Below, piece by piece: positions 41 through 18,960 of a stretch of DNA of 64,000 nucleotides. The notes below the pieces were generated by a model that was given only the letters and a program-made list of their open reading frames with translations, was not told where the DNA came from and ran no database searches. This DNA comes from Escherichia phage Turkey5, in the sequence record PQ471516.1; one strand, written 5' to 3'. A program made the position numbers and the translations under genes. The stretch's first letter is position 1; each line of letters starts with the position of its first letter.

Positions 41-119
41 GGCGTAACTATGCACCCGGTGGGCTTGAGTCTTTCTCGACTTGATGGAACTATTATACAG
101 TACTGAAAAAATAAAGCAA
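41..119 (-). ncRNA. candidate ORF-less mini transcription unit (CCCA-NN-GGGTGC core)
   Basis: minus-strand TTGCTT(114-119)-16-TATAAT(92-97) reads into core at 41-65; no ORF. Confidence 0.35.
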
Positions 120-148
120 TACCATAAACGCAAAAAGTTTTAATTAAT

Positions 149-240
149 TTGCTTGTTATCCTGGGGCGTATTGTGGTACTATAGTTCAGTACTGAGAAAG
201 TGCGTTTACCTGCTAGGGTGCGGGAGTGTATCCTTTTTTT
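149..240 (+). ncRNA. candidate ORF-less mini transcription unit (GGGTGC core)
   Basis: weak promoter TTGTTA(153)-18-TACTAT(177); core CTGCTAGGGTGCGGGAGTGTATCC 210-233 then T7 run. Confidence 0.3.
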
Positions 241-255
241 ATATCTTGAATTTTG

Positions 256-334
256 GGCGTAATTCCGCACCCTCTGGGGTTTCCGCTTTCTCGCGTCTAT
301 GTAGTAATTATACGCTTTTTCAGGATCAAGTCAA
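256..334 (-). ncRNA. candidate ORF-less mini transcription unit (GGGTGC core)
   Basis: minus-strand TTGACT(329-334)-16-TATAAT(307-312); core at 256-279; convergent with unit 149-240. Confidence 0.35.
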
Positions 335-614
335 TACCTAAAAACAAAATAATTGAAAATAATTTAACGCGTTTAAACGGCCCGTAAAGCCCTGGAATGA
401 TTGGAATGGTGCAAATGTATAGCTTAGGTGTATTAATGCGTTAGAATGCGTCTGAGGCCGTTTTACGGGGTATAGGGATGATTTGGTGGATTGATTCAGT
501 ACTGAATGATAGTACTACTATATAGAAAGATAGTTCCCCTGGATGGTTGCAGTACTGAATGATAGTTCCCCTATATAGAGAGAAAACTATTTTAAAAGTA
601 CATGTAGAAAGTAC

Positions 615-673
615 TTGCAAACTAAGTTTAACGGCGTATAATGTTTTACATCGAGAGCGGGAACACTTCCCGC
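615..673 (+). promoter_or_regulatory. early promoter + 5'UTR hairpin cassette
   Basis: TTGCAA 615, TATAAT 637, hairpin GCGGGAA-CAC-TTCCCGC 657-673. Confidence 0.8.
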
Positions 674-697
674 TACATATTACGAGAGATTAAAACG

Positions 698-1060
698 ATG
701 GCGACTCAAATCACTAAAATTATTGCTAACCTGGTTAACTTCCGCGACGAGATGAAAGATCTTCCGGCTGAAACGGTAAAAATTCACATCGCAGCTTATC
801 GGGAACTTATTGCAATGTTGCCGCTTAAGCGTGAACAATACGCCGCTACCGTGATGCTTGATGCGATGATCCATAAGATGATCGCCAGTGATTTGACGAT
901 GGTTTATCAGTACATGGGCGAAAAATTCTCGGTGTATAGTAAACCAGTACCAGGAATGGAAAGTACAGAAGTATTACACGGTTTAAATTTAAAACAAGAT
1001 GCATGGGATAATATGCCTCGTTTCCTGGTATGGGCTGACAGTGGCAAAATTTACGAATAA
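698..1060 (+). CDS. hypothetical early protein (120 aa)
   Basis: ATG 698 after GAGAG RBS; track start 641 lies inside promoter/hairpin. Confidence 0.75.
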   Translation: MATQITKIIANLVNFRDEMKDLPAETVKIHIAAYRELIAMLPLKREQYAATVMLDAMIHKMIASDLTMVYQYMGEKFSVYSKPVPGMESTEVLHGLNLKQDAWDNMPRFLVWADSGKIYE

Positions 1061-1074
1061 GTTTAATAAAGTAC

Positions 1075-1133
1075 TTGCATACTAAGTTAAAACAAGTATA
1101 ATACTTTCTATCAGGTGGGGAATAGTTCCCCAC
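1075..1133 (+). promoter_or_regulatory. early promoter + 5'UTR hairpin cassette
   Basis: TTGCAT 1075, TATAAT 1097, hairpin GTGGGGAATAGTTCCCCAC 1115-1133. Confidence 0.8.
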
Positions 1134-1154
1134 TATAATTAAGAGATTAATTTT

Positions 1155-1388
1155 ATGAGTACTATTTTAACTGTTTCTCAATCCGTTGCACTGACTGACC
1201 TATTAAACGCTTTAAGCCGTTGCACTGAGGTTGGCTTGTTTGATGTGGTTGACGTTGCACCGGACGTTATTAATCATTTTTGTGATGCGATGGAAGAATG
1301 TAAGGAAGATGATAGCCGTATGATGGCGGTCGCCTTTGAGGAAGTACAGCCAGGTGAGATCAAAGGTTTACCAGTACTGAAAAAATAG
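1155..1388 (+). CDS. hypothetical early protein (77 aa)
   Basis: ORF directly after cassette; 3' end runs into next promoter. Confidence 0.75.
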   Translation: MSTILTVSQSVALTDLLNALSRCTEVGLFDVVDVAPDVINHFCDAMEECKEDDSRMMAVAFEEVQPGEIKGLPVLKK

Positions 1389-1391
1389 TAC

Positions 1392-1450
1392 TTGCAAACT
1401 AAGTTTAAAAGCGTATAATACTTTACATCAGGTGGGGAATAGTTCCCCAC
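1392..1450 (+). promoter_or_regulatory. early promoter + 5'UTR hairpin cassette
   Basis: TTGCAA 1392, TATAAT 1414, hairpin 1432-1450. Confidence 0.8.
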
Positions 1451-1470
1451 TATATAAGAGGATTAAAAAA

Positions 1471-1710
1471 ATGGCTAAATCAAAAATGTTCTTAGGTCAC
1501 AAAAACAAAACTCATTGGAATGTAAGCCTTTGGATTAATAACGATGAGTCATTGTACCGGTTGGCCCAGGACTTTATTAACGATAGCACTAATCGCAATG
1601 ATGCGGCCCGTCATATGATGTTATTTTTAGAACAGACTGGACAAGATAAAACACCGGACGGATTCAAATATAGCACTACTGCGATCCGTGCTGCGATGGT
1701 TGGAATGTAA
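1471..1710 (+). CDS. hypothetical protein, paralog of 3871..4110
   Basis: ATG 1471 after AGAGGA; shares GHKNKTHWNVSLWINN...TPDGFKYSTTAIRAAMVGM with 3871..4110. Confidence 0.8.
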   Translation: MAKSKMFLGHKNKTHWNVSLWINNDESLYRLAQDFINDSTNRNDAARHMMLFLEQTGQDKTPDGFKYSTTAIRAAMVGM

Positions 1711-1795
1711 TAGAATTTATTTAAAGTACTATCATTTTTTGCGATAGTACTTTATAATAGTGTTTTATTCATACACCAACGATAAGGGTAACAGC

Positions 1796-17598: not shown

Positions 17599-17605
17599 AA
17601 AGTAC

Positions 17606-17667
17606 TTGCATTGTAGTTAGATTAACGTATAATGTTTTATATCGAGAGGGGGAAATGGTTTCCCCTC
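17606..17667 (+). promoter_or_regulatory. early promoter + 5'UTR hairpin cassette
   Basis: TTGCAT 17606, TATAAT 17628, hairpin ~17645-17667. Confidence 0.75.
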
Positions 17668-17685
17668 AAGTCCAGGAGATACACC

Positions 17686-17949
17686 ATGAACACTATCGAA
17701 ATCACTATCAATGCACACGTATACGACAACGTAGTACTGCAAACTACTATGACCGCTAATGATACCAGTACTTTGCGGAATACTGTTATTAGTGCCGTAT
17801 GTGCTGCAATCGGTGATGTATCCCTGGAAAATGCAGAACATATCAACAACGGTTTCACTATGTGCAAGCGTGATAACGCAAAACATATCATCGTGGAAGG
17901 TTACGGCGGTGTAGAATTTAATGTTTATATGAAAAAAGTACTTGCATAA
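17686..17949 (+). CDS. hypothetical protein (87 aa)
   Basis: CAGGAGA RBS, ATG 17686; stop inside next promoter. Confidence 0.75.
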   Translation: MNTIEITINAHVYDNVVLQTTMTANDTSTLRNTVISAVCAAIGDVSLENAEHINNGFTMCKRDNAKHIIVEGYGGVEFNVYMKKVLA

Positions 17950-17998
17950 TAACTAAAACAAAGTATAATGTTTTGCATAGGGGGAGATATCCTCCCCC
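17942..17998 (+). promoter_or_regulatory. early promoter + 5'UTR hairpin cassette
   Basis: TTGCAT 17942, TATAAT 17964, hairpin GGGGGAG-ATATC-CTCCCCC 17980-17998. Confidence 0.8.
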
Positions 17999-18016
17999 AC
18001 TAAAAGGAGTAATAAA

Positions 18017-18241
18017 ATGGCTAACTTTGATGAACTGATGCGGGAAGTAGCTAACCTGGCAGAAGAGAAGAAATCATTCGATTCTATCTATAACACCGCT
18101 CACCGTGATTCAGTACTGGCATGTAACCAGGATCAAAAAGATGAACTAATCGCCACCTATCATGAAGCATGGAAGTACTACCGACAATGGGAGAAAGAAG
18201 AAAGTGAGTCTACCATTGACGGCCTCAATAATCTAATCTAA
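18017..18241 (+). CDS. hypothetical protein (74 aa)
   Basis: AAGGAG RBS. Confidence 0.8.
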   Translation: MANFDELMREVANLAEEKKSFDSIYNTAHRDSVLACNQDQKDELIATYHEAWKYYRQWEKEESESTIDGLNNLI

Positions 18242-18260
18242 AAGTTTTATTTCAGTACTA

Positions 18261-18289
18261 TTGACATAGCTTGATAGTACTGATGTAAT
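18261..18289 (+). promoter_or_regulatory. class-II early promoter (diverged copy)
   Basis: TTGACA 18261-17-TGTAAT 18284. Confidence 0.6.
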
Positions 18290-18317
18290 AACTTTACTAA
18301 CTACAAGGGGAAACATA

Positions 18318-18575
18318 ATGGAACAGTTCACACAATATCGGGTAAATCATCAAGCTATGGCCTACGTAGAAGACCATAAAACGTTACCAGTACTGCAACC
18401 AGTTAAAGGCCATATCTATCGTGCAATGTCGTGGTGTACGGCTCAGGATGGCTATAAAACCGTAGCCGTTGGTATGTATTGCGGTAATGGTGAATGGTTT
18501 GATCCAAATAATCCGGTAGCCATTGACAGTACTGAACAAATGAAATGGGCCGACTATATCGAGGATATCTCATAA
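18318..18575 (+). CDS. hypothetical protein (85 aa)
   Basis: AAGGGGA RBS. Confidence 0.8.
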   Translation: MEQFTQYRVNHQAMAYVEDHKTLPVLQPVKGHIYRAMSWCTAQDGYKTVAVGMYCGNGEWFDPNNPVAIDSTEQMKWADYIEDIS

Positions 18576-18581
18576 AACTAT

Positions 18582-18642
18582 TTGACAGTACTAACCAGTA
18601 ATGTATAATGTTTTACATAGAGCGGGGGAATAGTTCTCCCGC
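18582..18642 (+). promoter_or_regulatory. early promoter + 5'UTR hairpin cassette
   Basis: TTGACA 18582, TGTATAAT, hairpin 18622-18642. Confidence 0.8.
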
Positions 18643-18664
18643 CAATAGTTTGGAGTAAAACATT

Positions 18665-18865
18665 ATGTCTATCGCTATCGCCCTGGTTGAAGTACTGAAA
18701 GAAGCTAAAGCCAACCTTATCGATGTACAGATTAAGGAATTGCAAAACGGCTTAATCGGCTGTACTTGTACCGCTGGTGGAGCGGCAGACTATCGAGAAC
18801 ACGAATCACTCGAATCACTGGTTCGGTATCTTACCATGATCGTTGATGATTGGAGAATCATCTAA
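18665..18865 (+). CDS. hypothetical protein (66 aa)
   Basis: GGAG RBS; contains Chi at 18773. Confidence 0.75.
   Translation: MSIAIALVEVLKEAKANLIDVQIKELQNGLIGCTCTAGGAADYREHESLESLVRYLTMIVDDWRII
18773..18780 (+). other. Chi site GCTGGTGG
   Basis: exact octamer, in CDS. Confidence 0.9.
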
Positions 18866-18882
18866 CAAAAAAGAATAAAAAA

Positions 18883-18909
18883 AGGGATTGACTCAGGTCA
18901 GTCCCTTTG
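18883..18909 (+). terminator. hairpin terminator overlapping a -35
   Basis: AGGGATTGAC-TCAG-GTCAGTCCCT + TTT. Confidence 0.6.
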
Positions 18910-18960
18910 CTATTATATACGCATAGACAAAAACTAGCCCACAGGGTGCATAAGTGTATC
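18888..18960 (+). ncRNA. candidate ORF-less mini transcription unit (CCCA-NN-GGGTGC core)
   Basis: TTGACT 18888-17-TATTAT 18911; core TAGCCCACAGGGTGCATAAGTGTATC 18935-18960. Confidence 0.4.

Follow-up and report, generated by a model that had tools for sequence, protein, structure and literature searches.

A Probable New Family of Two-Hairpin RNA Modules in the Terminal Repeats of Rak2-Like Jumbo Phages

Introduction

Eleven copies of a short, promoter-borne element lie between positions 28 and 18973 of the 64,000-nucleotide (nt) stretch of the Escherichia phage Turkey5 genome (PQ471516.1) that was analysed here and is referred to throughout as the window. A sequence-only reading had described them as eleven units without an open reading frame (ORF), each carrying a common core downstream of a promoter, and had suggested, among other roles, a family of phage small RNAs. 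We conclude that they are very probably paralogous copies of an undescribed, structured two-hairpin RNA module, and that this module is real, is maintained at the level of RNA and constitutes a new family.

The genomic setting emerged from comparison with Asteriusvirus phages, including 121Q, PBECO4, vB_Ec-M-J and fEgEco12, which match the first 20 kb of the window in mosaic blocks at 90–96% identity. In vB_Ec-M-J the corresponding stretch is annotated as a direct terminal repeat of 21,525 bp, and since position 1381 of the window corresponds to position 2128 of that record, the window must start some 750 bp in from the physical left end. For the Asteriusvirus group, the study of fEgEco12 confirms terminal repeats of about 20 kb (PMC13070987). 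All eleven units thus fall inside a direct terminal repeat of about 21 kb and, because the first 20 kb of the window correspond to this repeat, they are assigned by sequence correspondence to the early, first-entering region of a Rak2-like jumbo phage of 350–380 kb. This region is crowded with about 55 small genes on the + strand and is strongly mosaic among relatives.

The Eleven Loci and Their Promoters

The core sequence CCCANNGGGTGC occurs ten times exactly in the 64 kb, against 0.59 occurrences expected, and none of 100 shuffled sequences reached 11. The exact copies start at 52, 267, 2522 and 5044 on the - strand and at 2465, 9633, 11299, 13371, 16681 and 18938 on the + strand. The eleventh locus (149–240, +) carries the variant core CCTGCTAGGGTGC at 210, a form with a 4-nt loop that is also found in phages RaK2 and Muenster. 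One further match to the core with a single mismatch, at 28397, has neither promoter nor hairpin and was dismissed as chance. Alignment of the eleven loci extends from the promoter to about 25 nt beyond the core, and a covariance model built from 52 units of the window and related phages recovers exactly these eleven in the 64 kb, with E-values of 6e-14 to 5e-5 and the next match at E = 0.54. These E-values are rough, owing to a shortened model calibration which leaves the bit scores of 29–75 and the separation from background unaffected. The repetition perceived from the sequence alone is upheld.

Good sigma70 promoters had been claimed for all eleven loci, and near-consensus promoters are indeed present; nine score 10–11 of 12 against TTGACA-N16-17-TATAAT, and those at 41–119 (TTGCTT-16-TATAAT) and 149–240 (TTGTTA-18-TACTAT, with TG) are the weaker two. 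Eight carry a TG one base upstream of the -10 hexamer and are thus of the extended -10 type. A promoter is present at every unit, also in the relatives, and the distance from the end of the -10 hexamer to the core is 21–28 nt in the window and 20–29 nt in the relatives. Judging from promoter geometry, transcription probably starts at an A lying 6–8 nt after the -10 hexamer. In four + strand copies a terminator-like hairpin encloses the -35 hexamer (9571–9598, 13314–13341, 16619–16646 and 18881–18908), as had been recognised before.

These eight unit promoters differ from the TG-less TTGCAA/TTGACA-16-TATAAT promoters, with a 16-nt spacer, that precede many early genes. Promoters of the unit class (TTGACA-17-TGn-CATAAT or AATAAT) also drive ordinary genes at 7315–7343, 7607–7635, 10449–10477 and 19031–19059, in each case with a Shine–Dalgarno (SD) sequence and ATG 25–50 nt downstream, so that the promoter class is not specific to the RNA modules.

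No ATG occurs within 60 nt of the core start in six of the eleven units, and in the others its position is not common to the copies. Moreover, module lengths range between 38 and 46 nt, and the differences are not multiples of 3. The original judgement that the loci lack both ORF and ribosome-binding site is confirmed.

Fold of the Transcribed Module

Starting from the predicted +1 A, the module consists of a first hairpin, hp1, followed after 3–4 nt by a second hairpin, H2, and then by GC, seven variable positions (N7) and a YRYCY-A tail. Pairing in hp1 was assessed by a separate hairpin search in each of 95 distinct units from six phage regions; the alignment fitted to the model, in which the stems are out of register, gave only 47% pairing for hp1 and was not used for this purpose.

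The hp1 hairpin starts 0–5 nt from the predicted transcription start and has a stem of 3–6 bp. We found 25 distinct inner stems, all of them complementary, including CCA/UGG, GGC/GCC, GCA/UGC, GAG/CUC and ACG/CGU, and 16 units contain G.U pairs that would be A.C mismatches if the opposite strand were read. The loop is purine-rich and 5–8 nt long, most often GCGAAA (21 units), GAGAAA (14), AGAACAA (11) or AGAUAA (10), and in 78 of the 95 units the 3' end of the hairpin lies 3–4 nt before the core (R-CCC). The hairpin score is 9.59, compared with 6.80 ± 0.21 in shuffled sequences. Thus hp1 shows strong covariation on the transcribed strand, its shape being kept while its sequence is free.

The second hairpin behaves in the opposite manner, being almost invariant. 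It has the form R-CCC, a loop of either ANN (72 units) or 4 nt (23 units), and GGG-U, with an A-U or G.U closing pair. Of 185 distinct units, metagenomic members included, 183 have this hairpin fully paired. Two independent double changes (CCU...AGG) preserve the pairing, one in a unit of phage CBB with a 3-nt loop and the other in a unit of the Yersinia phage fHe-Yen9-04 with a 4-nt loop, and RNAalifold, applied to the alignment, predicts the H2 helix alone. The two loop lengths seem easier to accommodate in an RNA hairpin than at the site of a dimeric protein binding duplex DNA. The covariation of hp1 with its G.U pairs, the pairing changes in H2 and the RNAalifold result indicate that selection acts on the RNA.

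The tail allows an alternative fold. The N7 segment that follows H2 and GC is often GGAGAUN, and the YRYCY tail can pair with GGGUG to form a hairpin, P2, which is mutually exclusive with H2 and nearly iso-energetic with it (-3.4 kcal/mol for H2 and -3.7 kcal/mol for P2). In register, P2 is paired in 95.8% of cells, compared with 35–56% when the partner is slid. All the changes are one-sided, with GGGUG never varying, and P2 is therefore compatible with the data but unproven. Five or more U residues within 8 nt after P2 were found in only nine of 94 units, and P2 was consequently rejected as a general intrinsic terminator, the second window unit being a clear exception. A U-rich tail follows P2 at window 210+ and GAP32 17320+, for example. 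A third hairpin (GCGG/CCGU) in other registers and a helix closing the 5' end against the tail were also considered and, by inspection, each fits only a subset of the units. An AU-rich single-stranded stretch follows the tail.

The Individual Copies

Numbered from the left, unit 1 (40–119, -) has its -35 hexamer TTGCTT at 119–114, its -10 hexamer TATAAT at 97–92 and a predicted start near 85; hp1 is formed by 81–68 (AGUC/GACU, loop GAGAAA) and H2 by 64–54 (GCCC-ACC-GGGU), the tail ends at 40, and transcription would proceed towards the left end of the genome. Unit 2 (153–241, +) is the variant copy, with TTGTTA, an 18-nt spacer, TG-TACTAT at 177–182 and a predicted start near 188. It forms hp1 at 189–203 (GUACU/AGUGC) and the 4-nt-loop core CCU-GCUA-GGG at 210–218, and it ends in the P2 hairpin (215–234) followed by T7, a canonical terminator which, among the window units, closes the module in this copy only; the predicted RNA is about 47 nt. 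It converges with unit 3 (255–334, -), where TTGACT (334–329) and TATAAT (312–307) precede a predicted start near 300, hp1 at 295–284 (CGC/GCG, loop GAGAAA), H2 at 279–269 and a tail ending at 255.

Unit 4 (2411–2488, +), with the promoter TTGACT-17-TGgCATAAT and a predicted start near 2446, forms hp1 at 2448–2461 (UGGC/GCCG, loop AGAUAA) and H2 at 2464–2474, has a tail ending at 2488, and converges with unit 5 (2510–2583, -). The latter, transcribed from TTGACA-17-TGgCATAAT with a predicted start near 2547, has a weak hp1, H2 at 2534–2524 and a tail ending at 2510, and yields the lowest model score of 29 bits. Unit 6 stands alone and points against the genes. It was earlier delimited as 5041–5112 on the - strand and its module actually reaches 5032 (5032–5112), with TTGACA-17-TGgCATAAT, a predicted start near 5077, hp1 at 5072–5061 (GAC/GUC), H2 at 5056–5046 and a tail ending at 5032. 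Beyond it, at 4983–5003 on the same strand, lies a terminator-like hairpin (CGGGGAG-loop-CUCCCCG) with a U-rich tail, where the transcript of unit 6 would stop after about 100 nt. The converging + strand gene ending at 4977 shares this hairpin, which scores as the terminator of that gene too.

The five remaining units, all on the + strand, are co-oriented with the genes. In unit 7 (9571–9656) the hairpin at 9571–9598 holds the -35 hexamer TTGACT (9578–9583), the -10 element TGcTATTAT has its hexamer at 9601–9606 and the predicted start is near 9613; hp1 lies at 9615–9628 (UGAG/CUCA), H2 at 9632–9642 and the tail end at 9656, and next come a standard promoter (9700) and a gene (9779). Unit 8 (11242–11322), upstream of a DksA/TraR-like gene (11567–11824), has TTGACA-17-TGgCATAAT, a predicted start near 11277, hp1 at 11282–11293 (GACG/CGUC), H2 at 11298–11308 and a tail ending at 11322. 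Unit 9 (13314–13394) has its -35 hexamer (13321–13326) within the hairpin at 13314–13341, a -10 hexamer at 13344–13349, a predicted start near 13356, a short hp1 at 13356–13366 (AUUG/CAAU), H2 at 13370–13380 and a tail ending at 13394. Unit 10 (16619–16704) is similarly arranged, with the hairpin at 16619–16646 around the -35 hexamer (16626–16631), the -10 hexamer at 16649–16654, a predicted start near 16661, hp1 at 16663–16676 (UGAG/CUCA), H2 at 16680–16690 and the tail end at 16704, as is unit 11 (18881–18961), with the hairpin at 18881–18908, the -35 hexamer at 18888–18893, the -10 hexamer at 18911–18916, a predicted start near 18923, a short hp1 at 18924–18936 (UAG/CUA), H2 at 18937–18947 and the tail end at 18961.

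Distribution among Phages

BLAST searches with one unit yielded matches in jumbo phages of Escherichia, Salmonella, Klebsiella (RaK2, K64-1 and Muenster), Cronobacter (GAP32), Pectobacterium (CBB), Serratia (BF), Erwinia and Yersinia, and at least four named phage genera carry the module. The covariance model detects 9–13 units per early region of about 20 kb in the window and in RaK2, Muenster, CBB, GAP32 and BF. It gave 98 matches over six retrieved phage regions, and similar contigs from metagenomes and IMG/VR add a further 114. In total the family comprises 185 distinct units which keep the fold and the core across genera, and the presence of the element in related phages, proposed earlier as a check, is thereby established. 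Pattern scans of the whole genomes of 121Q, RaK2, GAP32 and CBB placed all matches in the early or terminal-repeat region, and IMG/VR contigs with a single match to the bare pattern gave no model match below E = 0.005. As far as the BLAST, model and pattern scans reach, the module is restricted to Rak2-like jumbo phages.

A host counterpart was sought with the pattern TARCCCAYAGGGTGC-N7-YRYCYA, which gave one chance match, without a model match, in 596 Gb of bacterial genomes, and mimicry of a host RNA was set aside on this basis. A resemblance to Escherichia coli RNase P RNA, with which CCAUAGGG and GGGUGCGG are shared, was likewise discarded, local alignment scores being within the range of shuffled sequences. 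In the literature on these phages no paper that was found mentions the motif; the CBB paper reports RpoD-like promoters only. Terminal-repeat non-coding RNAs have been described for phage PA5oct, a genome outside the set compared here.

These results also bear on the possibility that the loci are non-functional remnants or chance occurrences, for example decayed tRNA or intron fragments or promoter cassettes that have lost their ORF. Such debris might be expected in an early region full of duplicated promoter cassettes. However, ARAGORN detected no tRNA or tmRNA gene in the 64 kb, and Rfam 15 gave no match at the gathering thresholds in the 64 kb and nothing on the RNA modules at E < 5. Four weak Rfam matches (E 0.4–2.4) score about half the gathering thresholds and only one of them, at 16517–16647, touches a unit, in its terminator and promoter part. 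The loci are therefore not fragments of a tRNA, intron or Rfam element, and ten exact cores where 0.59 are expected by chance, in a family of 185 units retaining fold and core across genera, leave this explanation with a negligible probability; conservation and covariation effectively refute it.

Orientation and Neighbourhood

The units fill the slot between the end of an early operon and the promoter of the next cassette, and they do so in either orientation. Four of the eleven window units, and two to five per relative, point against the genes, corresponding to between a quarter and 40% of copies overall. The -35 hexamer of gene-co-oriented units often lies within the stem of the upstream terminator. 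Where an SD sequence and ATG are found within 250 nt of a co-oriented unit they are located at about +110 to +240, and the distance to the next start codon is always at least about 100 nt. In the window, the next gene has its own promoter after the unit in at least three of five cases (9700, 13450/13566 and 19031).

Lone opposite-strand units occur in all six regions, with two each in RaK2 and Muenster and one each in CBB, GAP32, BF and the window (5044-). All are followed by a hairpin and a U-rich tail, and six of the eight obey a strict terminator rule at +70 to +100, such that RNAs of about 95–105 nt without an ORF are predicted. A lone unit ending at a AGUACUGG...CCAGUACU hairpin recurs in CBB, GAP32, BF and the fHe-Yen9-04 contig, and its hp1 differs between CBB/GAP32 and BF.

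Convergent pairs form a second recurrent arrangement. The window pairs 149/256 and 2411/2511, correctly noted before as facing each other, have predicted starts 112 and 101 bp apart, and read-through would yield long hairpins of -43 and -38.5 kcal/mol. Every genus has two recurrent convergent pairs. In the window, CBB, BF and Muenster, whose records start at or near the left end, these are found about 1 kb and 2–4 kb from it, and the same two pairs occur a similar distance apart in GAP32 and RaK2. CBB and GAP32 carry a third convergent pair near the right edge of the repeat. Over all the pairs, the hairpins that read-through would produce contain 15–30 perfect bp and have energies of -32 to -59 kcal/mol. 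The proposal of mutual antisense action or a bidirectional stop can apply to the two window pairs, but it leaves the seven unpaired units unexplained.

The outermost left end (in the window, 1–600), which carries the first convergent pair about 1 kb from the terminus, is essentially non-coding over its 1.3–1.8 kb in relatives whose records start at the left end (1–1760 in one of them), and the left end of CBB contains only two tiny annotated ORFs. It also carries AGTACT-rich repeats (window 480–590).

This placement invites the explanation that the DNA itself, or the act of transcription, is what matters, with head-on or tandem promoters serving as insulators or roadblocks, the units being recombination cassettes similar to the PeSLs of T4-type phages, or promoter-primed R-loops serving as replication origins in the manner of T4 oriF and oriG. 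The position of the units beside terminator hairpins in the inter-operon slot, in either orientation, is in agreement with this, as are the four + strand composites of terminator and promoter, which are of the A3G3-loop-C3T3 type described for PeSLs (PMC4122927), the inverted repeats of 15–30 bp that the convergent pairs constitute near the left end, the AT-rich DNA that follows the core and the mosaic nature of the early region. None of these roles, however, calls for covariation of hp1 with G.U pairs, a fixed spacing between hp1 and H2, or an invariant H2 that tolerates loops of both 3 and 4 nt; the definition of PeSLs includes no downstream RNA module; and recombination cassettes would not hold a 12-nt core constant across genera amid differing promoter types. 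We therefore consider a role of this kind distinctly unlikely.

A 5' stabiliser or processing signal appears less probable still, and indeed very unlikely. The hairpins would shield the messenger RNAs (mRNAs) that they head from decay dependent on the 5' end, or direct cleavage by RNase III or RNase E. The closeness of hp1 to the predicted 5' end, the long double-stranded RNA or hairpins of the convergent pairs, typical RNase III substrates, and the AU-rich single-stranded stretch after the tail are all as one would then expect. Nevertheless, a stabiliser needs only a stem, which leaves the invariant sequence of H2 unexplained; copies without a gene are equally unaccounted for, and most early genes of the window have their own promoter, followed in some cases by a different 5' hairpin.

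The Surrounding Early Region

Several features of the region in which the units reside were recorded alongside them. A second repeated cassette, AGTACTTGCAA-N16-TATAAT, drives many early genes over window 610–13480, with examples at 610–700, 1387–1470, 2065–2150, 2625–2700 and 3426–3510. In the copies that were read (610–2700) the promoter is followed by a GC-rich 5' hairpin, for example GGTGGGGAATAGTTCCCCAC, an SD sequence and a small ORF. Over 33 nt, five copies are all but identical, the window contains about 14 TTGCAA-16-TATAAT promoters, and the general appearance of the cassette is PeSL-like.

The palindrome AGTACT, by far the most frequent 6-nt palindrome of the window, occurs 275 times, compared with about 21 expected from base composition, and is spread along all 64 kb, while CAGTACTG is found in promoter spacers, in upstream promoter regions and in small hairpins adjoining the units. 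The E. coli Chi sequence GCTGGTGG occurs 11 times in the window where 0.48 are expected, ten times within the terminal repeat (6620–19003) and once at 61855. Nine of the ten terminal-repeat sites are on the + strand, the orientation recognised by RecBCD when it comes in from the right end, which would suit the right-hand copy of the repeat. Two sites lie directly 3' of units, at 13402 (unit 9) and 18996 (unit 11), and in other Rak2-like contigs Chi or its complement occurs within the promoter spacer of a unit.

The early proteins with family matches are a DksA/TraR zinc finger protein (11567–11824), encoded just 3' of unit 8, a GNAT acetyltransferase, a protein with a ParE-like toxin domain, a weak match to protein kinases and two DUF7249 paralogues; the corresponding loci, in addition to that of the DksA/TraR-like protein, are 11888–12244, 15164–15418, 16023–16607, 1471–1710 and 3871–4110. 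For the other early proteins Pfam gave no, weak or DUF matches, and all the PHROG families matched are of unknown function apart from one weak "DNA ligase" match.

Possible Functions

The reading that we favour, with a rough probability of 0.4, is that the units are autonomous early small RNA genes which act in trans, a conserved partner binding their invariant hairpin. Transcription by the host sigma70 RNA polymerase would begin immediately on entry of the terminal repeat into the cell and, with about 11 strong promoters per repeat copy, the RNA could become abundant within minutes of infection. The invariant H2 together with the hp1 loop would be recognised sequence-specifically by the partner, most likely a host or phage protein, and the module RNA, present in high copy, would serve host take-over as a decoy, sponge or cofactor. 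In co-oriented copies the module would form the 5' end of early operon transcripts, from which it may be released by processing.

Two lines of argument suggest that the RNA is made for its own sake. First, the same module is produced in both orientations and many copies face away from the genes. Second, lone opposite-strand copies with only a terminator downstream have been kept across genera. Sequence-specific recognition by a conserved partner is suggested by the invariance of H2 across different hosts, which exceeds what pairing requires. The earlier notion of a phage small RNA family is supported by the covariation of hp1, the compensation in H2 and the lone copies with promoter and terminator, the function remaining a proposal; the two-hairpin fold, the location in the terminal repeat and the gene-co-oriented copies lacking a terminator of their own go beyond what had been discerned.

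Several results weigh against this interpretation. The extreme invariance of H2 means that its covariation support amounts to the two events described above, and the support for P2 is one-sided. Most gene-co-oriented units have no terminator within 230 nt and, because their own terminator is mostly missing, a discrete small RNA from them would depend on processing or weak termination. Placement after operon terminators and upstream of genes fits a leader acting in cis equally well. The literature searched contains no transcript data for these phages, and Pfam searches of 30 early proteins and PHROG searches of 20 of them gave no match resembling an RNA-binding protein, N, Q, NusG, Hfq or CsrA.

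These scans thus pointed to no partner among the early proteins, returning only the DksA/TraR, GNAT, ParE-like, kinase-like and DUF families listed above, although short, arginine-rich proteins of the N type could escape detection by Pfam and PHROGs. Antisense action on early mRNAs was rejected because duplex energies of six units with 50 early 5' regions were no better than those of shuffled units. A sponge for CsrA was also rejected; no more than 45 of the 95 units have GGA in the P2 loop, and CsrA is an unlikely partner.

A cis-acting transcription-elongation element is the main alternative, to which the placement of co-oriented units lends itself, and we judge it possible, if on the whole somewhat unlikely. 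The nascent two-hairpin RNA, acting alone as put does or with a factor as N does at nut, would modify the polymerase so as to counteract pausing, Rho or termination; alternatively, the choice between H2 and P2 would constitute an attenuator that either stops transcription at about +45 or allows reading into the early cassettes. The module always begins 0–5 nt beyond the start predicted for a very strong promoter, just as putL lies just downstream of PL (PMC9378689). Two hairpins a few nt apart, purine-rich hp1 loops resembling boxB, co-oriented units heading operons directly after terminators, and a core that is invariant across phages of different enterobacterial hosts, as if the polymerase or Nus factors were the partner, all accord with such a role. 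The mutually exclusive and nearly iso-energetic H2 and P2 and, in some units, the U-rich tail after P2 could underlie an attenuator.

On the other hand, four of the eleven window units, and the lone opposite-strand units of relatives, have only a terminator downstream to regulate, and the fresh unit at each operon-end terminator implies that intrinsic terminators are obeyed and not overridden. The rarity of U-rich tails after P2 counts against attenuation. Neither boxA nor ops occurs near any unit, the early proteins scanned include none resembling N, Q or NusG, and a module of 38–46 nt with stems of 3–6 bp in hp1 is a slight structure beside put, with about 70 nt, long stems and a triplex.

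The boldest reading is an RNA-based take-over device in which about 20 strong promoters per genome, counting both repeat copies, would flood the cell with RNA of 40–100 nt within minutes. The invariant R-CCC/GGG-U hairpin would then either sequester some conserved protein of the host, for instance a defence sensor, a ribonuclease or a factor associated with the polymerase, or constitute the smallest known protein-independent reprogrammer of RNA polymerase, a "mini-put". We regard this as speculative and unlikely as it stands.

The Rak2-like jumbo phages, including 121Q, PBECO4, RaK2, GAP32 and CBB, are under development for therapy, and the annotation of their repeats of about 20 kb consists of rows of hypothetical proteins. 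The best-conserved sequence of this fast-evolving repeat is a multi-copy, promoter-driven structured RNA and not a protein, and it is common to phages of Escherichia, Klebsiella, Cronobacter, Pectobacterium and Serratia. A decoy or cofactor function would direct attention to a conserved host target of early take-over, and an effect on RNA polymerase would make the module a second and much smaller case of elongation control by RNA only. In either case a defined motif and a covariance model become available for annotating these genomes, together with eleven precise loci for experiments.

Comparison with Known Systems

The put elements of phage HK022 are among the closest parallels. The putL and putR RNAs are of about 70 nt and form two long-stemmed stem-loops, stem I containing an RNA triplex, and putL sits just downstream of PL (PMC9378689). 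Like the module, they are structured phage RNAs with two stem-loops, transcribed by the host RNA polymerase from a strong early promoter, conserved between copies and devoid of an ORF, and their early-promoter position has its counterpart in the sigma70 promoter predicted 20–29 nt upstream of the core at all units. The module is much smaller, with 38–46 nt, 3–6 bp in hp1 and 4 bp in H2. There are two put copies per genome, both facing operons, whereas 9–13 units are present per terminal repeat and between a quarter and 40% of them face away. The put RNAs counter termination and pausing in cis by way of the beta' zinc-binding domain, with no protein factor. The module is not a member of the put family, size and fold being different; it is set apart by the published description of put and not by sequence comparison.

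Lambda nut sites bear a partial resemblance to the units, with a small promoter-proximal hairpin of purine-rich, GNRA-like loop beside a conserved short element, the stem sequence being free and the shape kept. The loop of boxB is of 5 nt, whereas the loops of hp1, on a variable stem, are of 5–8 nt (GCGAAA, GAGAAA or AGAACAA), and in the module the conserved element is itself a hairpin downstream of hp1, present in many copies and both orientations. A boxA (CGCTCTTTA-like) search with YGCTCTTWA gave three matches in the window, at chance level and none of them within 1–20 kb, and in the absence of boxA the module is not a nut site. An antiterminator of the lambda N type had no Pfam (30) or PHROG (20) match among the early proteins scanned, and the RfaH ops sequence GGCGGTAGnnTG gave a single one-mismatch match, at chance level and outside the units.

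The PeSLs of T4-type phages are short cassettes, repeated in a hyperplastic early region, in which a stem-loop terminator is joined to an early sigma70 promoter close to the consensus (PMC4122927). Four of the eleven units (9571, 13314, 16619 and 18881) fit this description in their terminator and promoter part, with the -35 hexamer within an A3G3...C3T3 hairpin, while the other seven have no such hairpin. PeSLs flank and drive ORFs, whereas the unit promoters lead to hp1 and H2, with the next SD sequence and ATG at least about 100 nt away. The structured RNA after the promoter, which is the best-conserved part of the units, lies outside the definition of PeSLs.

Lambda OOP and P22 sar are stand-alone phage small RNAs with a promoter and a terminator, present in single copy and regulating a specific gene as antisense. 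The lone opposite-strand units are similar in that ORF-less transcripts of about 100 nt, with their own sigma70 promoter and a terminator-like hairpin, are predicted. They differ in being multi-copy with a shared 5' domain, in overlapping the converging gene only at its terminator, and in that the units pair with early 5' untranslated regions no better than shuffled sequences do. CsrB and CsrC are sponge RNAs which carry many short hairpin repeats on one RNA and are made in quantity to titrate a protein, CsrA, that needs GGA. The many copies of a hairpin motif are similar in idea, except that each unit has its own promoter. Taken together, we rate the module as a new RNA family of a known sort, the promoter-proximal or small non-coding RNAs of phages.

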